Position numbers and translations under genes: made by a program. A stretch of DNA of 40,793 bases from a virus (Duplodnaviria > Heunggongvirae > Uroviricota > Caudoviricetes), in IMG/VR virus record IMGVR_UViG_3300048837_000378, positions 1 through 40,793 of that record, one strand, 5' to 3'. The notes beneath the pieces are model-generated. The model saw only the letters and a program-made list of their open reading frames with translations, was not told the DNA's origin and did not search any database. Position 1 is the first letter of the stretch. Every line of letters starts with the position of its first letter. Of the stretch, positions 3,999-38,548 are shown one piece after another.

Positions 3999-4044
3999 AA
4001 AAGCCTACCCTGCCTTTGTTTTAGGGGCTATCCAAAACAGCGCC

Positions 4045-4227
4045 CTATTGTTTACAGTCCTCGTATAAGTAAAATAATACAACCGGCCACCCTAATAAAC
4101 CCAGCAACCCCCTAATGATACTACCTATAGTAGCACTCCTGAAGCTCTTATGATTGATTATAGCCATAGTTAAGTAGACACCTAACCCGATACTAGCATA
4201 CATGATTAAAACTGTGTTGTGGTCCAT
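4045..4227 (-). CDS. Small membrane protein, two hydrophobic segments
   Basis: VLIMYASIGLGVYLTMAII and IIRGLLGLLGWPVVLFYL. Confidence 0.7.
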   Translation of the reverse strand: MDHNTVLIMYASIGLGVYLTMAIINHKSFRSATIGSIIRGLLGLLGWPVVLFYLYEDCKQ

Positions 4228-4437
4228 TTAGGAAGCTCTTTCTAGCCATAGGCTATTAATTAGGTGTCCTTCTTCTATCTCTTCAATAGTTACCATATAA
4301 TAGCCATTATTAAGGTTGTCTATACAGCAACTAGCAATAGTTAAGGTTTTACCCTTGTAGTTAGAAAAGTAACCATCGTAGTCAGGGTAGAACTTAACCT
4401 TAGAACCAATTTCCATAACTTGGCTTTTGCCTTTCAT
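4228..4437 (-). CDS. KOW/SH3-like small protein
   Basis: MEIGSKVKF; GGGGG RBS; first gene after the sigma54 site at 4503-4518. Confidence 0.7.
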   Translation of the reverse strand: MKGKSQVMEIGSKVKFYPDYDGYFSNYKGKTLTIASCCIDNLNNGYYMVTIEEIEEGHLINSLWLERAS

Positions 4438-4766
4438 AAAAGGGTACCCCCTATTGTTTTTGAGGTAGTTTCAAAAAGACTACCCCCTTTACTTTTTAGG
4501 TAAGCAGAATTTGTGCCATGTGTTATTTCAATAGGATAGCTGTATAATACCTGTGTAATAAGTGTACAAGTGTATGAGATATGGTGTACAATATACATAT
4601 AGGTCATATAGGTTATAATAGAGGTAATAAGTAGGGTAGTAGATATGGTAAGTAGTTGTAATTGTTTAGGAATAGTAAGTAATTGTAGTAGTAATATTAG
4701 TACAATCGGGGACCAGTTTTCATCTAACCTGCCGGTTTTACTGGTGAAAATAGCATTTTTCATCAT
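4434..4766 (-). CDS. Doubtful low-complexity L/T/I-rich ORF
   Basis: Has an AAGGGT RBS but spans a C-free tract and a sigma54 site. Confidence 0.3.
   Translation of the reverse strand: MMKNAIFTSKTGRLDENWSPIVLILLLQLLTIPKQLQLLTISTTLLITSIITYMTYMYIVHHISYTCTLITQVLYSYPIEITHGTNSAYLKSKGGSLFETTSKTIGGTLL
4503..4518 (-). promoter_or_regulatory. Sigma54 (RpoN) -24/-12 promoter for the leftward operon
   Basis: TGGCACAAATTCTGCT, GG-N10-GC; ~65 nt upstream of the 4437 start. Confidence 0.7.
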
Positions 4767-5017
4767 AAAATACCCTTAAATAGCATATAAAGCTCTATAA
4801 ACTGTAAAAATAGCCTTATTACTACAAACATTATATATAATTTAAGTACTACTAGAGCCTTTTTACCTATAGGTAGAGCTAAAAATTCTATATATAGGGC
4901 TTTCCCTTTCACACATAGCATATACTAGTCCTTTCTCAGTATGAGTCATCTCAAAATGAGACGTATCAGATTAAGACGTATCATTATGAGGCGTTCATTT
5001 TGGTACGAGTAGGCCGT

Positions 5018-5054
5018 TGGCACGGAAATTGCATATATAGCAAATAGCGTACCA
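5018..5054. promoter_or_regulatory. Face-to-face pair of sigma54 promoters
   Basis: + TGGCACGGAAATTGCA (5018-5033); - TGGTACGCTATTTGCT (5054-5039). Confidence 0.8.
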
Positions 5055-5249
5055 GTCCCAAATAGAGACGTATCAGATTGAAAATACCGCATTGAGACGT
5101 AGCTGCAAATACCGTGCTTGTATTGGAATGATACGTAATTCGAATTGTAAGTCTATAAGTATATGAAACTACTAGTGATTCTCAATTTGATATGTGAATA
5201 TTGAGTGGTGTCTAACTGACGTATATTGACTATAAGTTATACAAGCTTG

Positions 5250-5262
5250 TAACCTATTGATT
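5250..5262 (-). promoter_or_regulatory. Possible IHF site
   Basis: AATCAATAGGTTA matches WATCAANNNNTTR; lies between palindromic boxes and the 5365 sigma54 site. Confidence 0.35.
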
Positions 5263-5364
5263 CTATTAAGTAATATGTAATTGTTCTATATATGAGACTC
5301 CCCTTGTATATAAGTTCAACGTACCATCATAAGATTGACAGTCTAAGTACTTGAATTTACGTTG

Positions 5365-5380
5365 TGGCACCTAAACTGCA
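5365..5380 (+). promoter_or_regulatory. Sigma54 promoter for the 5410-6593 operon
   Basis: TGGCACCTAAACTGCA, GG-N10-GC; 30 nt before the ATG at 5410. Confidence 0.75.
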
Positions 5381-5409
5381 TTAGTTACTTGTATGAAAGC
5401 GAGGCATAT

Positions 5410-5640
5410 ATGAATCAGATACCTAGAGGCATATATAAGCACTACAAGAATACAGATACTCATACTATAACGTTTTATACTGAGACTAAGACCTATAGCT
5501 TATCTTGTGATTCACTCTTAGGTTTATTAAGTTTAGTTGATTCGTTCTTTAGCCCTAGACCTGATATGAGTCTAAGTGAATACACTTTAGCTCTAGAGTC
5601 AAGTTTAGACAACACTGTAAAACTTAATAAGGTGGCTTAA
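5410..5640 (+). CDS. Hypothetical protein
   Basis: Start moved to MNQIPRG (GAGG RBS). Confidence 0.7.
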   Translation: MNQIPRGIYKHYKNTDTHTITFYTETKTYSLSCDSLLGLLSLVDSFFSPRPDMSLSEYTLALESSLDNTVKLNKVA

Positions 5641-5641
5641 T

Positions 5642-5824
5642 ATGGTACAGATTAAAGAGTCTCAAGTTGAGGCGGTTATTACAGTGTGCCCGTATTGCAT
5701 GGACGAAGTGTCTCATAACAAGACAGGCTGTTGTGGGGAGAGTTCGTGTCACTTTGAGACGGCTGTGGTATATGATGGCATGGCATACCTTGAAAATGAG
5801 ATTGATATAATTGAAGGACAATAA
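5642..5824 (+). CDS. Small Cys-rich, probably Zn-binding protein
   Basis: CPYC...CCGESSCH; AAGGTGG RBS. Confidence 0.7.
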   Translation: MVQIKESQVEAVITVCPYCMDEVSHNKTGCCGESSCHFETAVVYDGMAYLENEIDIIEGQ

Positions 5825-5864
5825 ACTGTCTCATAACGAGACAATACACTATAACGGGGGTTAT

Positions 5865-6593
5865 ATGTTTAGGAACTACGCTAAAGATGAAATAGAGGCG
5901 CTTCAAATTGAGACAGGCGTCAAGTCTGTACTCACTCAGAATGCTAAAATGAAGCGTTCGTCTCAAAATGGGATTCACTTGTATAACTTCGGTATTCCAG
6001 CCTTTAGGTCTCAAACTGGTCTTGCCACTTGTCCCAATGCGAAACACTGCGTTAAAGGCTGTTATGCTAAAAGCGGCTCTTATCTGTACTCGGGCACCGT
6101 AGCAGCCTATGAGAATCGTCTCAGTTTGACACGAACCAAAGGTTTTGAACAAGTAATAACGTACCATATTGATAAACTCCTCAAAAAACACCCCACTGGT
6201 CTCATATTGATACGGGTGCATGATAGTGGGGACTTTTACAGTGAAACATATCATAGAGCATGGTATTTAATAGCGTCTCAGTATGAGACTAATCCTAGAG
6301 TCAAGTTTTATGCTTATACCAAAATGGTACAGCAGTCTTTAGGCTTATCGGCTTTAGCGCCTAAAAACTTTAGGTTAATTTTTAGTTATGGCGGAAGTGA
6401 AGATTCTCATATTGATACAGAGAAGCATTACCATAGCCGAGTGTTTGAAAGTCTAGAGGCATTGAGTCAAGCCGGATATATAGATGGTACTCACGACGAT
6501 ACTTGCGCTGCCATTGGTCCAGACGTGAAAATAGGTCTAGTATATCATGGTATGCGAAGCTTTAAAAACACAACATGGGATAAGGTCTCATAA
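5865..6593 (+). CDS. Gene product 88-like protein (Cys cluster, radical-SAM-like fold)
   Basis: TCPNAKHCVKGCYA and RVHDSGDFY, FYAYTK motifs typical of the phage gp88 family; start MFRNY with GGGGG RBS. Confidence 0.8.
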   Translation: MFRNYAKDEIEALQIETGVKSVLTQNAKMKRSSQNGIHLYNFGIPAFRSQTGLATCPNAKHCVKGCYAKSGSYLYSGTVAAYENRLSLTRTKGFEQVITYHIDKLLKKHPTGLILIRVHDSGDFYSETYHRAWYLIASQYETNPRVKFYAYTKMVQQSLGLSALAPKNFRLIFSYGGSEDSHIDTEKHYHSRVFESLEALSQAGYIDGTHDDTCAAIGPDVKIGLVYHGMRSFKNTTWDKVS

Positions 6594-6610
6594 TGATATA
6601 ACCCCCAAGC

Positions 6611-6644
6611 TGGCACGGTAGTTGCTTATGCAATTGCTGTGCCA
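6611..6644. promoter_or_regulatory. Second face-to-face pair of sigma54 promoters
   Basis: + TGGCACGGTAGTTGCT (6611-6626); - TGGCACAGCAATTGCA (6644-6629). Confidence 0.85.
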
Positions 6645-6839
6645 GTCTCTTTATTATACATAATTCGAAATATGGCTTATATTGAGACATTCGAGGACTG
6701 TCTAAGGTATGACTCTCGTATATAAGTTCGCCACCTGCTAAGTACTTATAACTATTAAGCTTATTAGAACTAAGGCTATATTGACTATAAGTTGTACGTC
6801 TTCTCTATTCGAGACTTGAGTAATTACAACTACTTAGGT

Positions 6840-6855
6840 TGGCACGAGGACTGCA
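6840..6855 (+). promoter_or_regulatory. Sigma54 promoter
   Basis: TGGCACGAGGACTGCA, GG-N10-GC. Confidence 0.75.
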
Positions 6856-6867
6856 ATACTAGTATAT

Positions 6868-6963
6868 ATGAAGACGTTAACTGTTACAACTAAGAAGATA
6901 AGTGATAAGCAAATAAAACAACTAGAGTGTTTAGGCTTTAAAGTTAAAGTGATTTTAAAATAA
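6868..6963 (+). CDS. Putative 31-aa basic peptide, near-leaderless
   Basis: MKTLTVTTKKISDKQIKQLECLGFKVKVILK; the ATG is ~2 nt after the predicted sigma54 start site. Confidence 0.45.
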   Translation: MKTLTVTTKKISDKQIKQLECLGFKVKVILK

Positions 6964-7004
6964 ACCGTCTCTATATGAGACATAACTATACCTAGGGGGT
7001 ATAT

Positions 7005-7256
7005 ATGAAGCATTCAGTAAAACAAACAGTATTCAACGCATTGAATACAGAACTAGAATCTGGTCGCATGACCTTGACTCAGTTACTCAATCCCAATTGG
7101 GGACAGTGTCAAGACTTTGGTCTATTCATTACTGGACTAGTGTCTTATATTGGCACTAATTATGGTACTGTCAGACCTGAAACTGTAAACGTATATATTA
7201 GAAGCTTTAAAGCTAAGGAACGACGCAAGTTGTCTCAAGCTAAAACAACTATCTAA
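7005..7256 (+). CDS. Hypothetical protein
   Basis: ORF track; AGGGGG RBS. Confidence 0.75.
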   Translation: MKHSVKQTVFNALNTELESGRMTLTQLLNPNWGQCQDFGLFITGLVSYIGTNYGTVRPETVNVYIRSFKAKERRKLSQAKTTI

Positions 7257-7281
7257 AAGTTAGACATTGTATCATACTGAG

Positions 7282-7304
7282 CCGTACCTCTAAGGGGGGT
7301 ACGG
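7282..7304 (+). terminator. Hairpin, probable terminator of the + operon
   Basis: CCGTACCTC-TAAGG-GGGGTACGG; U-tail is weak. Confidence 0.5.
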
Positions 7305-7537
7305 TAATCAGTTTACCTCCCCTAACCCCTCCAGTTACCAAAAGAGTATCGGTTTGGAATTTTAAAAAAAATTAAAAATCAAACTTACGTATTATAATAT
7401 TATACTCTTAAAGGTATATTTTAACAGTTTAAAGCTCTAACTAGTTAATAAGACTGGCTTATGTATTTACGTATATTAACTAATATAAGGGGTACTACCA
7501 TTAAAACGGACTCTACAACAAAGTGACATTCTAAATT

Positions 7538-7777
7538 TTAAAAAATTCTTAAAAAGGAACTAGTGGTGATTACATCAGGTATAGGGTCTGGACTGGGCCA
7601 ATATAACGTAATTTCAGCCTTAGTAGCCAATCTACAAGTAAACATACCATCTTCTAAATACCAACGGTTATAATTACCATTATCCCATAAAACTTCAAAC
7701 CACCTGTTAGTAACTCGGGATATCTTACCCATACTAACGTCAGTGACTATAATGTCGCCTTTATTAAAAGGGACCAT
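7538..7777 (-). CDS. KOW/SH3-like small protein
   Basis: FNKGDIIV; start embedded in the upstream TAT-GGT. Confidence 0.7.
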   Translation of the reverse strand: MVPFNKGDIIVTDVSMGKISRVTNRWFEVLWDNGNYNRWYLEDGMFTCRLATKAEITLYWPSPDPIPDVITTSSFLRIF

Positions 7778-8015
7778 ATAAAGTCTCTATAACTTTGATT
7801 CTAGTGTCTGAGTCGTCTACAACTTCAAATAGCCGCTGTAAATCGTACCTAGTAAAGTGAAGTTCATTTCCAGTATTAAAGGAATAGAATAGAAGCTCAT
7901 AAGGCTTATTTCTTACGTAGTTATTAACTTTAATAAACTTATATAGCCTAGTGTGGTCTAGGGATACCCAGTCGCCAGGTTGCAATAAATTGATTTCTCT
8001 AAACGTCATTGCCAT
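7764..8015 (-). CDS. KOW/SH3-like small protein with TLYG motif
   Basis: LQPGDWVSL; ends KVIETLYGPF; start MAMTF embedded in the upstream TAT-GGC. Confidence 0.75.
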   Translation of the reverse strand: MAMTFREINLLQPGDWVSLDHTRLYKFIKVNNYVRNKPYELLFYSFNTGNELHFTRYDLQRLFEVVDDSDTRIKVIETLYGPF

Positions 8016-8304
8016 ATAACAGCTCGCCAGCAGGAGTATGTGGCACAAAAGTAACGTAGTCCATATTAACCCAACACCGCGTATTATACAGTTCAATAAG
8101 TAAAGTATTATCTTCTATTTTAAATTCTGTCAATTCTTCTTGTATCAAAGCCCAAGGTCCGTTGTCAATTTGACGGTAATATTCTAATTTGACTGGAATA
8201 GCAAGTTTAACGTAAGTATCAGTCTTTTCTAAATAAAATAGAGGACTATCTGACATATAAGCGTGTAACAGCTTGACTTGTTGGGCAGGAACTTTAGCTT
8301 CCAT
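7999..8304 (-). CDS. Hypothetical protein with LLYG motif
   Basis: Start MEAKVP (AGGA RBS); ends TPAGELLYGNDV. Confidence 0.75.
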   Translation of the reverse strand: MEAKVPAQQVKLLHAYMSDSPLFYLEKTDTYVKLAIPVKLEYYRQIDNGPWALIQEELTEFKIEDNTLLIELYNTRCWVNMDYVTFVPHTPAGELLYGNDV

Positions 8305-8641
8305 CTGAAGGTCCTGTAAGTACTTGTAAAGCTGGAGTTTCTTCAAATACGCTAAAATGGTGTACGTTATTAGCGTCAATCTCTAACCTAGCAGTACCAG
8401 CAGCTAGAGTCCAATTAACTACTGATAAGCTAATAGAGTCTTTTGTAAAAGAATAGGCTCTAACTTCAAATATATGAAATTTACCGTTATTATCTAGATA
8501 TTCAGGGTTTGTATAGACTAAGTGACATATAGTAGTCCTACCTATGTCGTAGGGCCTCTCAGCTTCTTTTTGAGCTTTAGTCAACTTGTATCTTTTTAAT
8601 TGTTTCTTTAAGACGTTCAAGGGTAGAGCTTTTCTAGGCAT
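8294..8641 (-). CDS. Hypothetical protein with VLTG motif
   Basis: AGGAG RBS; ends TPALQVLTGPSDGS. Confidence 0.75.
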   Translation of the reverse strand: MPRKALPLNVLKKQLKRYKLTKAQKEAERPYDIGRTTICHLVYTNPEYLDNNGKFHIFEVRAYSFTKDSISLSVVNWTLAAGTARLEIDANNVHHFSVFEETPALQVLTGPSDGS

Positions 8642-8772
8642 TATAAGCTCCTAATAGCCCGTTTAAGGCGTCTCATCTCATCAAGGCTGATACTGGGGTA
8701 CATCCAGTAATCTAAAGGAATCTGAGGCGTTATAGAGGCCGACGCTTGCAAGGGCTTAGGTGGCATGCTCAT
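8641..8772 (-). CDS. Putative 43-aa protein
   Basis: MSMPPKPLQAS...RRLKRAIRSL; its TAA overlaps the next ATG. Confidence 0.4.
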   Translation of the reverse strand: MSMPPKPLQASASITPQIPLDYWMYPSISLDEMRRLKRAIRSL

Positions 8773-8804
8773 ATATTGACTCTACTGTAACCTAGGTAGA
8801 ACAT

Positions 8805-9398
8805 TTATAGCATACCTTGTTGTTTAGCCTTATTACGTAAGTACGTCATAAAGTTATCTTGAGTGTAAGTAACAGCTTCAGTAGCTCCTATCACAGTTTT
8901 AGAAGGCTTAGACAAAGTTATAAATATTTCGTTATGATGATTTTTAAAAGTTTTAAGGTTAACCCAACCGTCTTGTTTGACAATTTCAGAAGCTATTGCT
9001 AAATAAGGATTAGGGGTCGAGGATGCGATTGTGCCAGAGCTTGAAGAGTCAGACCGAGTAGTACTTCTTTTATCGTAGTTTAGAAGGTCTGACCCAGGCT
9101 TAGGGGTTCCTAGGTTGCCTGTCCCTATTACCTTAGTTCTTTTTTCTAGTTCGTTTTTTAGGTTTTGTAAGGTCGTAGAAGAACGTGACGTCGTCTTCTG
9201 GGCTAGAGGGTACGACGTGAACTTTTGGTTTACGTTTGTTTGTCGATTTTCGGGGGCGGCCTTCGGCCTTGACAGGGCTAGGGAGGCTCGGAGGGTATAT
9301 ACTTTTTTTTTAAGCTGAAGTACTAACTGGTACAATTTAGTACCAAGGTTTATGACAGCTTCGCCTAACAAAGTTAGGAAATCTTTATTTTGTTCCAT
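8805..9398 (-). CDS. Hypothetical protein with S/T/K-rich disordered middle
   Basis: ORF track; directly follows a sigma70 promoter. Confidence 0.7.
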   Translation of the reverse strand: MEQNKDFLTLLGEAVINLGTKLYQLVLQLKKKVYTLRASLALSRPKAAPENRQTNVNQKFTSYPLAQKTTSRSSTTLQNLKNELEKRTKVIGTGNLGTPKPGSDLLNYDKRSTTRSDSSSSGTIASSTPNPYLAIASEIVKQDGWVNLKTFKNHHNEIFITLSKPSKTVIGATEAVTYTQDNFMTYLRNKAKQQGML

Positions 9399-10694: not shown

Positions 10695-10710
10695 TGCAAA
10701 ATACATGCCA
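10695..10710 (-). promoter_or_regulatory. Sigma54 promoter (leftward)
   Basis: TGGCATGTATTTTGCA, GG-N10-GC. Confidence 0.7.
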
Positions 10711-14506: not shown

Positions 14507-16117
14507 ATGACACAAGAAGTAAATACAGAAGGTAGACCATTACGGATACACGAACTGGACATTGAAGCATTAGCTCAATTTCTTATGGAAAAGCGAGTCA
14601 GAACCTCTCAAGGTAAACTGATTATGCCTTTACATGAAGGACATAGAGAGGCTTTACGTGACGCCGGTCGTTTTAAAGTTTTGGCATGTGGCCGACGATG
14701 GGGCAAAACACTCTTAACAAGTTTAATGGCTCTTGCAGTATTAATGCAAATGAACCGTAGAGTATGGATTGTTGCTCCTGATTATGGCTTGACCGAGAAA
14801 GTATTTCGTGAATTGTATCATATTTTAGTTACTCAATTACAGATAATCAAACCTGGTAAAAGAGGTGGAGGTAGGGCGCGTAATCAAAAAGGCGACTACT
14901 ACTTAGAAACTCCGTGGGGCTCCGTTTTGGAAGCTAAATCAATGGAGAATCCAGACTCACTAGCAGGGGAAGCATTAGACCTCGTAATCGTTGATGAGGC
15001 TGCTTTGCAGCCTAATATGGACGACATTTGGACTCAGATGTTACGTCCTACTCTTATGGATAAAGAAGGCTCTGCTGTATTTATCTCTACTCCGCGTGGA
15101 AAAAATGGCTTCTTTAAACTGTTTATGTTCGGCAGTGTCGGTAGAAAACAACGAGAGAATAAATTAAGAATTACACTTGATGCAGACGGTAATTCTAATG
15201 ACATGAGGGATTGGAGTTCTTTCCAACGCTCAAGCTATGATAACCCTTTATTATCTTCTTCTCCAGAAAAATCTAAAGATGAAATTGACCACGCTTATCG
15301 TCAAGCAGCGATGGAAGGTAAATTAACTAAGTTCAAGCAAGAATACTTAGCAGACTTTGAAGCAGTAGCTGATAGTTGTTTCCCTGGATTTACTCCAGAA
15401 GAAACAGATAAATCCAAAGTACCGCATGTAGTTGATTACGTATGGCATCCAGATGAAGGTCCAGTTTTCGCAGCTTGTGACCATAACTTCGCAAAACCAG
15501 CAAGCACATTATTTGCCCAAGTGAATAAGTTTGGGGATGTAGTAATTTTTGATGAGAGATTTACTCCACACACAACTACTTACATGCAAGGTCAACAGAT
15601 TATAGACAAAGAAGCTGAACTTACTAGAACAGCTTTGCAAATCTGGCAAGACGAAGCCGCACTACAGAAATCAAGACACCATATAAAATTTCAAGATATC
15701 GTAGCAGATGTTTCAGGAGACCAAGTCCAACTTAACGGACGGTCAGCATGGGACGATATGACAGCAATTACTGGCCGCAGACCTACTGGTTTAAAGCAAC
15801 CAAGAGATGTCGGCTCTAATATGATTAGGTTGTGGTTAAACTACCCACAATTTGATGAACGAGGCAGACCAAAATTAGACCCTGTTTCAGGAGACCAAGT
15901 AACTCTTCCTAAACTGTTCATCAATAGAAATTGCATTAATTTGATTTATGCTATCCAAACAGCCAAATTTAAAAAAGGCCAAAATGGAGTATTGAAAGAA
16001 GATTACGAAGAAACTCCTGATGGATATGAGGGACTTCTAGATGCTTTAAGGTATTTACTAGTACATCTATTTCATGATAGAGGAGAACATTTTACTATAA
16101 TAAAAGGAGTACAATAA
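14507..16117 (+). CDS. terL: Terminase large subunit
   Basis: Walker A CGRRWGKT, Walker B LVIVDEAA, ISTPRGKN motif III, nuclease end LLDALRY. Confidence 0.95.
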   Translation: MTQEVNTEGRPLRIHELDIEALAQFLMEKRVRTSQGKLIMPLHEGHREALRDAGRFKVLACGRRWGKTLLTSLMALAVLMQMNRRVWIVAPDYGLTEKVFRELYHILVTQLQIIKPGKRGGGRARNQKGDYYLETPWGSVLEAKSMENPDSLAGEALDLVIVDEAALQPNMDDIWTQMLRPTLMDKEGSAVFISTPRGKNGFFKLFMFGSVGRKQRENKLRITLDADGNSNDMRDWSSFQRSSYDNPLLSSSPEKSKDEIDHAYRQAAMEGKLTKFKQEYLADFEAVADSCFPGFTPEETDKSKVPHVVDYVWHPDEGPVFAACDHNFAKPASTLFAQVNKFGDVVIFDERFTPHTTTYMQGQQIIDKEAELTRTALQIWQDEAALQKSRHHIKFQDIVADVSGDQVQLNGRSAWDDMTAITGRRPTGLKQPRDVGSNMIRLWLNYPQFDERGRPKLDPVSGDQVTLPKLFINRNCINLIYAIQTAKFKKGQNGVLKEDYEETPDGYEGLLDALRYLLVHLFHDRGEHFTIIKGVQ

Positions 16118-36098: not shown

Positions 36099-38548
36099 TG
36101 AGAAACCTAAAGATTATAGTCACAGTAGTTGACAAAACTCAAAAACCATTAGAACAAGTTGAAAAACGTGTTCGCAAGACTGGCGCTGCTGCAAAATCAG
36201 CAGCTCTAGATTTTACAAAGTTTAATAGAATTTTGTTTACTACTTCGGCATTTGTTGGGACCTTTGTAAAAGGTTTTAGCACTTTGACTAACTCTATCGA
36301 AGAAGGAGCAAATTTTGATAGACTAGTGACTCAGTTTGAACGAGTAATGGGACCAAAAGGGCAACTTTTTGATTCCATCAGTTCTATGACTGACGCTTCC
36401 ATCGATAAGATGGAGGCTATGCGTGAAGGATTATCTTTAGGTAGCCTTGGTATTATAAAAAACTCCAGTGAATTAGCAGCTATGGTCACTAAGGCCGGAG
36501 TCGCTTCAAAACTTGCTGGTAAAGATTCTGGAGAAGGAATTAAACAATTCTCCAGCTTCCTAAAAGACGGTAACGTAAGTCATCTAGAATTTTTCAATTT
36601 AATTGCTAGAACAAATCCTGCATTACAAGCACAGATGGCCATTCTCGGCAAAGCTGGCGGAATAATGGGGACAGTAGTCACTACTCAGGCGCGTTTGGCT
36701 ATGGGCCAAGCATTGCTCTCAGCAGCAACAAAAGGACAATTAAAAGGATTTAGAGATTTAAAAGACACAGTAGCAGATTACCGCCAAAACTTACTATTAC
36801 TGAAAAATAATATAGGAACCTTATTAGGAAAAGCTTTACAGCCTCTAATAGACAGTTTTTCTAGGCTATTAGAAAAATCTTCTAATTTTATTGATTCTAT
36901 TAAAGATAACAAACAAGTTAGATTTCTTATTAAATTTTTCACAGTAGCAGCCGGAGCAACATTAGGTTTAGCTGGAGCATTAGGAACATTAAGATTAGCT
37001 GTAATGGCTTTAGGTTCCTTGGGATTCGGACTACCTCGTTTGATTGCTTTGGGCTTAGGTTTAGGCACTACTTTCTTAGGTATCACTAAACCTGTTAGTA
37101 GCTTTGCCGACAAACTAAAATTAATTGGGGCAGTCGTAAAAGGTGTATGGGAACTAATCTCTACTCTAGACAGCGAAACTGGTATTGCAAAACTATCAGA
37201 ATCTACTTATAAACTATTAAAACAGAACGGCCTTCTAGGATTTGTACAATTTCTTGGAAGAGTTGGTTCAGTAGCTAAAACAGTAGTTTTGAATATGTTT
37301 GACGCTTTTAAATGGTTAGGAAAAAAATTAGACGACGTGTTCGGAGGAATGTTCCAAACTGTCATTAAATTTTTTCAAAAAATCAACGACCCTTGGTCTA
37401 ATTGGTGGGTAAATGATAGTGTAGCTCCTATTGAAAAAGGTATGCGAGCCGCTACAGTAATTGTTTCTACATTTGCCGCCCTATGGATGGGCAAAAAAAT
37501 GCTAGGAGGAATAGCTGGAGTTTTAAGTAAAATTCCTGTTATTGGTAAGCTGTTCGGCGGAGCTGGTAAAGGCACCGGCCCTACAGGAGATGCTACTGAC
37601 CCAATTTTTACTGTACCCATCGGCGGTGGACTAGCTGGAGGAATTCCAGGACTAGGTAAAGCCAAGGATGCGATATTTGGTAGATTGGGCAAAATACTAG
37701 GACCTTTGTCTTTAGCTTTTCAAAATTTACTTTTAAGAAGTAAAATTCTTGGTGAAATATTTACTCATCCAGGCGGTAAACTTCGCGGACTTATGTCTGT
37801 ATTTGGTAGTTTTGGTAAGAGTTTTCTAAGTCTCGGAAGAGTCGTAGGAACTTCTATTATGGCATTTGGAAGTACAATACTTACTAGCCTAGTTACAATG
37901 TTTTCATCTTTAGCTCCTTTATTAGGTCCAGCAATAGCAGTTACTGCTGCCGCTGGAATCGGTTACGCAATTGGAACGGCAATTAACACTTTAATAGCTA
38001 AATACACTCAAGGCGAAACTGAAGAAGGTTTTAAGGGAGATTTGTTTGAGCGAGCAGGGTTCAAAGTAAATAAATTGTTTGGTGGAGAATGGTCTAAACG
38101 TGAGATGGCTCTGGCAGATTTCCAAAAGAAATCAGACGTAGACATAGTAAATGAGTTTAGAAAGAAAAACGGTCAACCACCCCTGACAGCGGACCAAGAG
38201 CAAAAACTTAGGGAATCTTCTAAATCTGGACCAACAGTACCAACGTCGAGCCAACTGATGACTCCTATGAAACAGACGTCATCAATAATCCCTGATTCAG
38301 TTCAATCAGAATTAGAGTCATTAAATCAACTTGGCGAGAATATGCAAAACACACCAAGTTCAGACGCTACGGTTATGAAAAATAACATAGAAAAAATGTT
38401 AGCTAGCGGAAAAGAACCTCAAGAAGTTGCGTCACAATTACTCGGAAGTAAATTAGATGATACTAATTACTACTTAGAAGTTATTGCAGGAAATACTGGC
38501 AAAAGCCAATCCTTACAAACTAATCCTATGACTAAAAGGGAGCGATAA
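36098..38548 (+). CDS. Tape measure protein
   Basis: 816 aa, helical A/G/L-rich with hydrophobic segments, after the chaperone. Confidence 0.88.
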   Translation: MRNLKIIVTVVDKTQKPLEQVEKRVRKTGAAAKSAALDFTKFNRILFTTSAFVGTFVKGFSTLTNSIEEGANFDRLVTQFERVMGPKGQLFDSISSMTDASIDKMEAMREGLSLGSLGIIKNSSELAAMVTKAGVASKLAGKDSGEGIKQFSSFLKDGNVSHLEFFNLIARTNPALQAQMAILGKAGGIMGTVVTTQARLAMGQALLSAATKGQLKGFRDLKDTVADYRQNLLLLKNNIGTLLGKALQPLIDSFSRLLEKSSNFIDSIKDNKQVRFLIKFFTVAAGATLGLAGALGTLRLAVMALGSLGFGLPRLIALGLGLGTTFLGITKPVSSFADKLKLIGAVVKGVWELISTLDSETGIAKLSESTYKLLKQNGLLGFVQFLGRVGSVAKTVVLNMFDAFKWLGKKLDDVFGGMFQTVIKFFQKINDPWSNWWVNDSVAPIEKGMRAATVIVSTFAALWMGKKMLGGIAGVLSKIPVIGKLFGGAGKGTGPTGDATDPIFTVPIGGGLAGGIPGLGKAKDAIFGRLGKILGPLSLAFQNLLLRSKILGEIFTHPGGKLRGLMSVFGSFGKSFLSLGRVVGTSIMAFGSTILTSLVTMFSSLAPLLGPAIAVTAAAGIGYAIGTAINTLIAKYTQGETEEGFKGDLFERAGFKVNKLFGGEWSKREMALADFQKKSDVDIVNEFRKKNGQPPLTADQEQKLRESSKSGPTVPTSSQLMTPMKQTSSIIPDSVQSELESLNQLGENMQNTPSSDATVMKNNIEKMLASGKEPQEVASQLLGSKLDDTNYYLEVIAGNTGKSQSLQTNPMTKRER

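Follow-up and report, generated by a model that had tools for sequence, protein, structure and literature searches.

The window, that is, the whole 40,793-nucleotide stretch of DNA that was analysed, belongs to a 104,793-bp contig of an uncultured phage and holds, at 4933-7283, an island of short palindromes (hereafter boxes) interspersed with predicted sigma-54-type promoters (Table 1). The leftward early gene block has its first credible gene start at 4437, and the ORFs 4434-4766 and 4763-4921 have low-complexity translations. Directly beside the four tandem boxes, the A+T content is 72% over 4760-4932. The rightward three-gene operon contains twelve boxes (5472, 5659, 5710, 5746, 5828, 5900, 5960, 6118, 6199, 6275, 6404 and 6585), which fall in differing reading frames. 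When ten ORFs of the island and its neighbourhood were compared with Pfam and PHROGs, the sole match was GP88 (PF17338) and no DNA-binding family was detected.

The operon ends in a hairpin with the features of an intrinsic terminator, which lies 16 nt past the stop codon of gp88 and precedes UCUCUUUAUUAU; no shuffled sequence was as stable. The arms of this hairpin are the sigma-54 boxes 6611(+) and 6644(-), and the terminator may also be a promoter site. The promoter pair at 5018-5054 forms a weak hairpin and is therefore not taken to be a terminator.

Table 1. Positions of boxes, predicted promoters and genes in and around the island
Position	Strand	Feature	Remarks
4503-4518	-	sigma-54-type promoter, TGGCAC-N5-CTGCT	heads leftward early gene block; nearest boxes ~450 bp upstream
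4933-4992		four abutting boxes	centres -104, -89, -74 and -59 from predicted start of 5018(+) promoter
5018-5054		face-to-face sigma-54-type promoter pair	5018-5033(+), PWM 19.6; 5054-5039(-), TGGTAC..., PWM 16.6
5055-5084		box 5055-5069 and weak abutting box 5070-5084	5055 box adjoins -24 element of 5054(-), centre ~-34
5365-5380	+	sigma-54-type promoter	predicted to drive operon 5410-5640, 5642-5824, 5865-6593
5410-6593	+	three-gene operon	76-aa ORF, 60-aa Cys-rich ORF, 242-aa GP88-family protein (PF17338, E 7e-34)
6609-6646	+	intrinsic terminator of gp88 operon	perfect 17-bp stem, 4-nt loop, U-run; -29.8 kcal/mol, z -7.2
6674-6688		box	between terminator palindrome and 6840 promoter; centre -63 from 6644(-), -185 from 6840(+)
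6840-6855	+	sigma-54-type promoter	precedes small ORF 6868-6963 and 83-aa ORF 7005-7256
6967-7283		last three boxes (6967, 7232, 7269) and 83-aa ORF 7005-7256	
7276-7312		hairpin, -22 kcal/mol	between convergent units; right island edge; last box overlaps its foot
10695-10710	-	strong sigma-54-type promoter, PWM 17.6	second leftward block, 10493 to 7538; no box within 3 kb

The box array and its sigma-54-type promoters

The box is GTCTCANNNTGAGAC (GTCTCA-N3-TGAGAC). With up to two mismatches allowed it occurs 22 times in the window, 21 times within 4933-7283 and once at 38092, and 100 dinucleotide-preserving shuffles of the window gave a mean of 1.14 matches and a maximum of four. The rest of the contig beyond the window adds four matches, which makes 21 sites per 2.35 kb in the island versus five across the other 102 kb. 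The array is thus real and local on this 105-kb phage. The first-pass annotation had counted the same 21 boxes and seen none elsewhere in the window; the count stands, and the match at 38092 has to be added. The exact 15-bp period it reported for four head-to-tail boxes (4933, 4948, 4963 and 4978) is borne out, and of the two boxes it had described as abutting, 5055 is a two-mismatch site and 5070 is a weaker one with three mismatches (PWM 10.7). It had also proposed a genome-wide PWM scan, in which uniform density would have counted against a dedicated array. The density is not uniform, since a PWM trained on the 21 island sites finds 21 sites scoring at least 13 in the island region and one outside (88004).

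The extended consensus is yGTCTCA-WWW-TGAGACr, a palindrome of 15-17 bp. Its fixed 3-bp A/T spacer and its dyad symmetry are conserved in the PWM, and the half-site variants GTATCA and GTTTCA are tolerated. A dyad-symmetric site in 21 copies, some of them abutting, has the form of an upstream activating sequence for a sigma-54 enhancer-binding protein (bEBP).

Exact matches to TGGCAC-N5-YTGCW number six (4518-, 5018+, 5365+, 6611+, 6644- and 6840+) versus 0.03 expected. The six sigma-54 promoters noticed initially are therefore all recovered, with the qualification that the pair 6611/6644 is an intrinsic terminator as well. An approximate sigma-54 PWM, modelled on published promoter compilations, gives 15 matches of at least 14; 13 of these lie within 1-12.4 kb, the early region, and all are co-oriented with genes, palindromic partners excepted. 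Sigma-54 boxes also occupy syntenic places in the related phages L005/L085 and L155. In L005/L085 the counterpart of the 5365(+) promoter is at 4073, and the layout of the 6840 promoter is repeated at 5535, then 5667 and 5839. Over-representation, co-orientation and position in relatives all argue that these sequence-predicted elements are sigma-54 promoters.

Boxes are centred at -33 to -104 from 5018+, 5054-, 6611+ and 6644-, and the pairing of boxes with promoters is incomplete both ways. Many boxes are hundreds of base pairs from the nearest promoter, with about ten of them intragenic and remote from promoters, and for several strong sigma-54 promoters of the phage the nearest box is kilobases away (those without a nearby box are 3408-, 2892-, 2571-, 10710-, 81025- and 91089-). 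At seven phage promoters a box is centred at -33 to -36, adjoining the -24 element, and in three phages a promoter-proximal regularity is seen, with boxes at this position and tandem runs at -50 to -104. The spacing of -33 to -36 is closer than that of classical enhancers and would equally suit a repressor. The window had been said to contain no bEBP gene, and six-frame searches of the whole contig likewise find no Sigma54_activat or HTH_8 domain.

Related phages and selection on the array

A box island of 2-3 kb with 14-19 boxes is common to three related uncultured phages. L155 has 19 boxes over the first 1.77 kb of the locus, its contig starting within the island; in L005/G002, a stretch of 3 kb holds 14 of the 15 boxes, and in the 62.5 kb of L088/G001 all 18 fall within 2.5 kb. 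Of the 15 boxes that can be aligned between the window and L155, 14 are retained. Third codon positions in half-sites are identical in 38 of 42 cases versus 217 of 334 elsewhere (Fisher p = 3e-4), and those in the box spacers in 7 of 11. Compared with the more distant L005, sites have been gained or lost through synonymous codon choice, for example within the common peptide RLSLT. Conservation of half-sites at third codon positions, together with this turnover among distant relatives, indicates that the island array, conserved in four phages, is maintained by selection acting on the DNA.

An unrelated HK97-like phage (L086/L087) carries four boxes between its HNH and small-terminase genes, with no sigma-54 promoter. 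Positions 4000-9000 matched none of 50,697 phage records in a blastn search. For the terminase and the gp88 protein, matches were to distant phages only, so that cultured relatives give no host.

The same palindrome in Bdellovibrionota

Two abutting boxes were sought in 185,579 species, and of the 14 matches three are in Bdellovibrionota; genes beside the double-box matches in bacterial genomes are mostly without families. Perfect boxes are concentrated in seven of 81 sampled Bdellovibrionota genomes. Bdellovibrio sp. HCB185ZH, with a 3.9-Mb genome, has 18 perfect boxes versus ~0.2 expected, and 76 sites at up to one mismatch versus 11 for the control. Three further close relatives (G017, G026 and G066) show enrichment at up to one mismatch only. 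Over-representation of the box is specific to one clade of Bdellovibrionota, Bdellovibrio included, in which the genomes counted have 20-76 sites each at up to one mismatch, dispersed around the chromosomes.

The first-pass annotation had suggested looking for the box upstream of host sigma-54 promoters, and it is found there. An outward sigma-54 match (PWM at least 10, within 130 nt) accompanies 13 of 31 perfect host sites and an inward match one of 31, where ~0.6 are expected. Like bEBP upstream activating sequences, the boxes are thus upstream of outward-pointing -24/-12 (GG-N10-GC) promoters, with centres at -40 to -134. About 60% of perfect sites are without a recognisable sigma-54 promoter (~40% with). 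In one genome (G006), a ribosome-binding site and ATG follow the promoter in the five flanks inspected by eye, and an apparently orthologous promoter has the identical 42-nt offset in two genomes. The box regulon in the host comprises dozens of mostly uncharacterised genes; one site precedes a gene for a fliA-like sigma factor.

Each candidate host genome encodes about 12-13 bEBPs. The leading candidate binder is a short, sensor-less protein of 351 aa that consists of AAA+ and HTH_8 domains and is encoded in Bdellovibrio sp. HCB185ZH at L132 17529-18584(-), as judged from its orthologs and from sites near its gene. Full-length orthologs (69-100% identity) occur in ten of the 81 genomes. All ten have a box count above control at up to one mismatch, with a clear excess in eight and a modest one in G034 (24 vs 9) and G066 (33 vs 13); the other 71 genomes were counted for perfect boxes only. 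In both genomes examined, two abutting degenerate boxes precede the ATG of the short-bEBP gene by 45-75 bp. The box-rich but incomplete genome G057 is without an ortholog. Because the short bEBP tracks a clade, phylogeny confounds its co-occurrence with the motif. The divergent neighbour of its gene is a tyrosine recombinase. A 519-aa bEBP with boxes upstream of its gene was rejected because it is phylum-wide and does not track the motif, and a Psp system was rejected because PspA is absent from both host genomes searched.

Since the same palindrome sits upstream of Bdellovibrio sigma-54 promoters, predatory Bdellovibrio come into view as phage hosts, and the most likely host is a member of the one Bdellovibrio-containing clade, as far as can be told solely from the common motif. 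No CRISPR spacer, prophage or near-identical DNA tying the phage to these Bdellovibrio genomes was found. Comparison of 20 kb of phage DNA with five Bdellovibrio genomes gave one 29-bp match, which was rejected as a CRISPR spacer and is attributed to chance because it lies in an ordinary coding region without repeats. The portal protein of the box-bearing HK97-like phage was not found in the five Bdellovibrio genomes searched. The GC content is 37% in the phage versus 42-50% at the host loci. A different palindrome from the relative L009, TGTYAnAATCCTGACA, shows no enrichment in the same 81 genomes.

Interpretation and comparison with known systems

Because the palindrome precedes outward sigma-54 promoters in the candidate hosts, we read the box as a host upstream activating sequence, and its binder is most likely a host enhancer-binding protein. 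Sigma-54 promoters are not known to fire without an ATP-driven activator, and a virus with a sigma-54 early programme must therefore depend on a host signalling protein. We consider it probable that the boxes are sites for a host bEBP binding as a dimer through a Fis-type HTH, that host sigma-54 RNA polymerase transcribes the early region, and that the host is, most likely, of the Bdellovibrio clade. The original suggestion of an array for a host bEBP gains independent support from the clade-specific over-representation of the box and from its place at the host promoters.

Under this explanation the phage, having no activator of its own, would rely on the host sigma-54 polymerase for its early region, and some 20 copies of the activator site would be concentrated in a 2.4-kb island at the main divergence point of phage transcription. 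Proximal boxes (centres -33 to -104) would load activator hexamers onto the island promoters. A simple model of one box to one promoter is insufficient, because many boxes are hundreds of base pairs from promoters; through looping, these remote boxes would make the activator locally more concentrated at the flanking early promoters. On replicating phage DNA the boxes could titrate the activator off roughly 40-80 host sites. Most likely the phage borrows a host transcription activator, and it may soak the activator up too.

A bolder version of this explanation is conceivable, although we hold it to be doubtful. A large lytic-type Bdellovibrio phage would run its whole early programme on host sigma-54, gated through one bEBP by a 'super-enhancer' of ~20 sites. 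The array would then sense the physiological or life-cycle state of the host as a switch, serve as a hub for promoters up to several kilobases off, and act as a copy-number-dependent sponge that shuts down the phage early genes together with the host regulon during DNA replication.

That the array is a sponge only, titrating the host activator without activating any phage promoter, and so shutting the regulon or timing the early-to-late switch, appears unlikely. Most boxes are intragenic and far from promoters, and their density is conserved while their position is not, as would suit a decoy. Per genome, the phage carries 8 boxes at up to one mismatch and 21 at up to two versus 20-76 at up to one in the host, so that replicated phage DNA would outnumber the host sites. 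However, this reading leaves aside the regular promoter-proximal boxes in three phages and the need of the phage sigma-54 promoters for some activator, when the phage encodes none. Moreover, sponge and activation roles are compatible.

We give equally little weight to a host regulator other than a bEBP, such as a repressor or architectural protein that modulates sigma-54 promoters and silences or shapes the island. The directional association in the hosts, upstream and at variable distance, is the signature of activator sites, and the dyad, 15 bp long with G/C at +/-7, is of a kind suited to Fis-type HTH dimers, although this last point is a resemblance only. On its side are the boxes that adjoin the -24 element, which would suit occlusion, the ~60% of perfect host sites without a clear sigma-54 promoter, and the boxes of the HK97-like phage.

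Less probable still is a dimeric DNA-binding protein encoded by the phage itself, such as the product of the 83-aa ORF 7005-7256, that uses the boxes as an operator array to control the island. The ORF lies within the island, and homologues are detectable solely in the box-bearing relatives L005 (32% identity) and L155 (68%). None was detected, however, at the examined locus of box-bearing L088, and the ORF has no family match in Pfam or PHROGs. Dozens of sites at sigma-54 promoters of bacterial chromosomes would be left unexplained, and no credible homologue of the protein was found there (best E 0.05, with an internal stop codon).

The remaining alternatives are not favoured. Slightly less probable again is that the array serves for replication, as an origin with iterons beside an AT-rich unwinding region, or for packaging or partition, as a cosB/pac or parS-like site. 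Four tandem boxes do adjoin the A+T-rich stretch, and the cumulative GC-skew minimum, read on the circle, is at ~4.9 kb; transcription changes direction at the same point, and this suffices to explain the minimum. Boxes between the HNH and terminase genes of L086/L087 occupy the usual place of a cos site, yet the terminase genes of our phage are 7 kb from the array. The half-site is one base off parS GTTTCA, but the spacer is N3 rather than the N2 of parS, and the box does not correspond to a 16-bp TGTTTCAC-GTGAAACA-type site with a cognate ParB: the ParB_N match at 77.4 kb, 70 kb away, scores 12.5 bits, below the cut-off of 26.3. An initiator gene was not identified, and on host chromosomes the motif is dispersed at sigma-54 promoters. 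Decoys or targets for GTCTC-recognising restriction enzymes are highly improbable even though the half-site contains GTCTC (CGTCTC when extended), given that GTCTC and GAGAC are not avoided (168 in the genome versus ~130 estimated from base composition), GTATCA and GTTTCA variants are tolerated, the A/T spacer and dyad symmetry are conserved, and host sites are at promoters.

Full-text searches of a limited collection brought up no phage described as combining a clustered sigma-54 early region with a dense array of host-activator sites under selection at the DNA level, and nothing relevant on the box motif, sigma-54 phage promoters or Bdellovibrio regulons; Bdellovibrio phages were scarce in the literature searched. 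If the host-bEBP explanation is true, the island would be a natural bacterial "super-enhancer" or decoy array for the study of cooperativity, action at distance and titration. It would also reveal a previously unnoticed clade-specific Bdellovibrio sigma-54 regulon with a defined operator and a candidate regulator, and would assign a host to an uncultured 100-kb phage family through common regulatory sites. As a general method, it illustrates the use of phage-borne operator arrays as probes for host and regulon.

The NtrC enhancer of glnAp2 carries TGCACC-N5-GGTGCA sites bound by Fis-type HTH dimers. There, a dyad of 15-17 bp lies upstream of a -24/-12 promoter, and the activator oligomerises and can act at a distance. 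The likeness to NtrC sites pointed out in the first-pass annotation holds for spacing and geometry, in the register G-N3-CA-N3-TG-N3-C only; the half-site bases in the PWM differ, and the box is therefore not an NtrC site. The phage array also differs in having ~21 sites versus 2-5, many of them intragenic, in a virus without the activator. FleQ boxes of Pseudomonas (GTCaNTAAATTGAC) are located upstream of the RpoN site or, atypically, near it or downstream. Our box resembles them in its GTC...GAC ends and A/T-rich centre, and FleQ is a bEBP with sites that may be unusually promoter-near. However, the spacing differs by 1 bp (GTC-N9-GAC here), and the candidate short bEBP showed no FleQ-type N-terminal domain. 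PspF of E. coli is a sensor-less bEBP whose sites are in the divergent promoter region of its own gene. The candidate resembles it in having AAA+ and HTH_8 only and two boxes upstream of its own gene, but differs in its recombinase neighbour and in the lack of a PspA-family gene in two host genomes.

Like iteron arrays (lambda ori, P1 oriR/incA) and parS, the island has clustered repeats of 15-19 bp, partly coding, with an A+T-rich neighbour; unlike them, the box is dispersed at bacterial sigma-54 promoters and has no nearby initiator or credible ParB. Finally, late transcription of phage T4 uses a 'mobile enhancer', in which a DNA-loaded sliding clamp activates the gp55 polymerase. Activation in our phage would similarly be enhancer-like and ATP-dependent rather than that of a simple sigma-70 promoter. 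However, in T4 the sigma factor, the co-activator and the clamp are phage products and no sequence-specific enhancer is involved, whereas this phage would apparently owe its sigma factor, activator and site specificity to the host.

The island of palindromes and its conservation

The palindromic boxes (GTCTCA-N3-TGAGAC) lie in a 104,793-bp IMG/VR viral record, estimated to be 91% complete, of which the window forms the first 40.8 kb. The phage is of myovirus type and carries, besides the large terminase, genes for a baseplate-J protein, family-A DNA polymerase, primase-helicase, ribonucleotide reductase and ligase; we found no tRNA genes in it, and no close relatives among 50,697 deposited phage genomes. 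Gene direction is leftward from ~4.4 kb and over the arm that spans 104.8 to 66.9 kb, and rightward between 10.8 and 62.8 kb; one more leftward block, at 7.5-10.5 kb, breaks this pattern. The boxes occupy a small rightward island of 2.35 kb flanked by two leftward blocks, at the main divergence of transcription in the genome, and the minimum of cumulative GC skew (contig read as a circle) coincides with them. The island is preceded by ~500 bp of apparently non-coding DNA, encodes a 76-aa ORF, a 60-aa Cys-rich ORF, a GP88-family protein (PF17338), a small ORF and an 83-aa ORF, and is closed by a hairpin.

A search for GTCTCANNNTGAGAC with at most two mismatches returned 22 matches in the window, where shuffled sequences averaged 1.1 and never exceeded 4. 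The 21 copies listed in the first-pass annotation within 4933-7283 were all recovered at exactly the same coordinates; its remark that none occur elsewhere in the window falls to a single match at 38092, and of its abutting boxes the run of four with a 15-bp period stands, the copy at 5070 being weak. The remainder of the contig beyond the window holds just four further matches. A PWM built on the 21 sites (consensus yGTCTCA-WWW-TGAGACr) scores 21 sites at 13 or more inside the island region and one outside, so that the box density is local on the full contig.

Features of the phage, its relatives and host genomes (window positions unless a locus is named)
Feature	Position	Remarks
Apparently non-coding DNA	4438-5409	~970 bp; two leftward and two rightward sigma-54 promoters
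Called ORFs	4434-4766(-), 4763-4921(-)	low-complexity translations; probably not genes
Four abutting boxes	4933-4992	exact 15-bp period
Weaker box	5070	three mismatches
Regions with common short motifs	5104-5317, 6629-6797	spacers of paired rightward promoters
TATATTGACTATAAGTT	5222, 6777	same spacers
GTATATAAGTTC	5306, 6718	same spacers
GP88-family protein	5865-6593	Cys-rich stretch CPNAKHCVKGCYA
Perfect 17-bp stem, then U-run	6609-6646	16 nt past GP88 stop codon; -29.8 kcal/mol, z -7.2
Hairpin closing island	7276-7312
Large terminase	14507-16117
ParB_N-like stretch	G000:C1:77351-77440	106-aa frame, minus-strand arm; 12.5 bits, sub-threshold
Sigma-54-type promoters outside window	G000:C1:81010-81025, 91074-91089	PWM 19.5 and 15.7; minus strand
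Sigma-54 boxes of a distant GP88-bearing contig	L009:5400-10500	many antisense at gene ends
Palindrome TGTYAnAATCCTGACA	L009:10173-10220	three abutting copies, 16-bp period
Boxes of HK97-like phage	L087:2669-2745, L086:13113-13188	four boxes in two contigs; GC 50%
Short bEBP gene with upstream boxes	L132:17529-18659, L143:2096-3225	genomes G006 and G082

Relatives were retrieved by three routes (the GP88 protein, the DNA pattern and the 83-aa protein), and all those tabulated have the same island. L005/L085 (GP88 63% identical) packs 14 of its 15 boxes into 3 kb, L088 (GP88 53% identical) has all 18 in 2.5 kb of a 62.5-kb contig, and L155 (~79% nucleotide identity), whose contig begins inside the island, has 19 in the first 1.77 kb of the locus. 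The motif is absent from the more distant GP88-bearing contigs L006-L011. GP88 is the sole gene common to every box-bearing relative examined and is present also in box-less phages; its Cys-rich stretch is reminiscent of phage proteins of the Fe-S or radical-SAM-like type.

Of 15 boxes that can be aligned between the window and L155, 14 are kept. Inside genes, the 12 specified box bases are identical in 38 of 42 cases at third codon positions, against 217 of 334 at other third positions (Fisher p = 3e-4); for the 3-bp box spacers the figure is 7 of 11. In the more distant L005 the boxes stand in different reading frames from those of the window, and synonymous codon choice gains or loses boxes while the protein is unchanged. 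Third-position conservation and this turnover together indicate that selection acts at the DNA level, preserving site density and not fixed positions.

Sigma-54 promoters and their spacing from the boxes

The consensus TGGCAC-N5-YTGCW has six exact matches where 0.03 are expected, which bears out the six sigma-54 promoters described earlier. With a rough PWM, whose frequencies are our approximation of published compilations, 13 of the 15 whole-genome hits scoring at least 14 fall in the first 12.4 kb, and all such hits share the orientation of the local genes, apart from the reverse partners in two palindromes. L005 has sigma-54 boxes upstream of both island operons at syntenic places, and L009 has 17 exact ones in 12.6 kb. 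The palindrome of L009 itself is not enriched in 81 sampled Bdellovibrionota genomes. Two further strong sigma-54-type promoters lie inside the replication-gene arm of the phage, with no boxes nearby. Short conserved motifs recur in the spacers of both rightward promoter pairs (5018 to 5365; 6611 to 6840); they may represent sigma-70-type promoters, or belong to a leader or small RNA.

The face-to-face pair at 6609-6646 is, judged by its predicted fold, an intrinsic terminator, with G-U pairs favouring the + strand, and may also hold the next promoter. The 5018/5054 pair folds poorly.

Promoter-proximal boxes recur at regular positions in the phages. At seven promoters across three phages a box abuts the -24 element, with its centre at -33 to -36, and tandem runs lie at -50 to -104; a four-box run stands upstream of 5018(+), and another in L088 adjoins a face-to-face promoter pair. 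About ten boxes fall within the GP88 operon, the nearest promoter being hundreds of bp away, and the strong promoters 4518-, 3408-, 2892-, 2571- and 10710- lack a box within 0.4-3.7 kb.

The palindrome in Bdellovibrionota and a candidate activator

Scanning the whole collection for two abutting boxes yielded three more viral contigs and 14 bacterial loci, of which three belong to Bdellovibrionota. Whole-genome counts at no more than one mismatch, with the reversed pattern as control, gave 76 sites against 11 in Bdellovibrio sp. HCB185ZH (18 perfect, ~0.2 expected), 37 against 6 in a Bdellovibrionales MAG and 25 against 6 in a Pseudobdellovibrionaceae MAG; the box is thus strongly over-represented in the Bdellovibrionota genomes counted. 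Corallococcus has 3 (control 2) and Rheinheimera 2 (control 10). Perfect copies, counted in 81 genomes sampled evenly from the phylum, cluster in seven of them (6-18 each), and the control never exceeds one per genome; three further close relatives (G017, G026, G066) are enriched only at one mismatch.

Most perfect host sites are intergenic, 25-100 bp upstream of start codons. An outward sigma-54 PWM hit of at least 10 lies within 130 nt of 13 of 31 perfect sites in two genomes, compared with an inward hit at one and a background expectation of ~0.6 (binomial p ~1e-14; outward versus inward p = 2e-4); the PWM is approximate, its exact values being immaterial to the outward-inward control. Measured from the predicted starts, box centres are at -40 to -134, and the five G006 flanks inspected by eye show a ribosome-binding site and ATG after the promoter. 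Because of these outward promoters, and the ribosome-binding site and ATG beyond them, the palindrome behaves in the host like an upstream activating sequence for sigma-54 promoters, as the first-pass annotation had proposed looking for in candidate hosts. Most downstream genes lack a Pfam family; among them are also genes for a PilZ protein, a fliA-like sigma factor and an SLT-domain protein. This Bdellovibrionota clade is the likely host clade of the phage; CRISPR spacer and prophage searches gave no link.

Neither a Sigma54_activat nor an HTH_8 domain is encoded by the phage, in agreement with the earlier statement that the window has no gene for a sigma-54 enhancer-binding protein (bEBP), and these host genomes have ~12-13 true ones each. 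One, of 351 aa, consists of AAA+, lid and HTH_8 domains only, with no sensor domain. Of the 81 genomes, 10 have a full-length ortholog (69-100% identity), and in all ten the sites at no more than one mismatch exceed the control, clearly in eight and modestly in G034 and G066; boxes in the other 71 were counted as perfect copies only. In both genomes examined (G006 and G082), two abutting degenerate boxes precede its start codon by 45-75 bp. In G006 the gene is divergent from a tyrosine recombinase gene. We regard this protein as a candidate binder, a lead and not an identification, its co-occurrence with the motif in one clade being confounded by descent. A 519-aa bEBP, also with boxes upstream, was rejected as binder: it is distributed phylum-wide and does not track the motif.

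A proposed enhancer hub and its alternatives

We suggest that the array is an enhancer hub. Proximal boxes would load the activator onto the island promoters, the sole step with support in the sequence; the whole cluster, by looping, might raise the local activator concentration for flanking early promoters, and replicated copies of the array might titrate the activator. Two alternatives are serious: that the array is purely a sponge, and that the boxes bind a host regulator other than a bEBP, for instance a repressor at -34. A replication origin, packaging or parS site would draw on the A+T-rich flank, the skew minimum and an unrelated HK97-like phage in which four boxes lie between the genes for HNH and the small terminase; however, the skew tracks gene orientation, neither an initiator nor a credible ParB is encoded, and the host copies are situated at promoters. 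In the HK97-like contigs (HNH, Terminase_4 small subunit, TerL, portal, ClpP, capsid), that interval is the usual cos region, three of the four boxes abut with a 15-bp period, and no sigma-54 promoter follows them. That the motif populates bacterial chromosomes makes a binder encoded by the phage unlikely; the 83-aa protein, the sole island protein tracking the boxes, has no credible host homologue and was undetected in the L088 locus examined. The suggestion that the boxes are decoys for GTCTC-recognising restriction enzymes is excluded by tolerated half-site variants and a lack of GTCTC avoidance.

The enhancer reading put forward in the first-pass annotation is thereby supported; the analysis adds to it a likely host clade, a host regulon and a candidate activator. 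Bacterial enhancers are of a known kind; here a virus appears to use such sites at unprecedented density.
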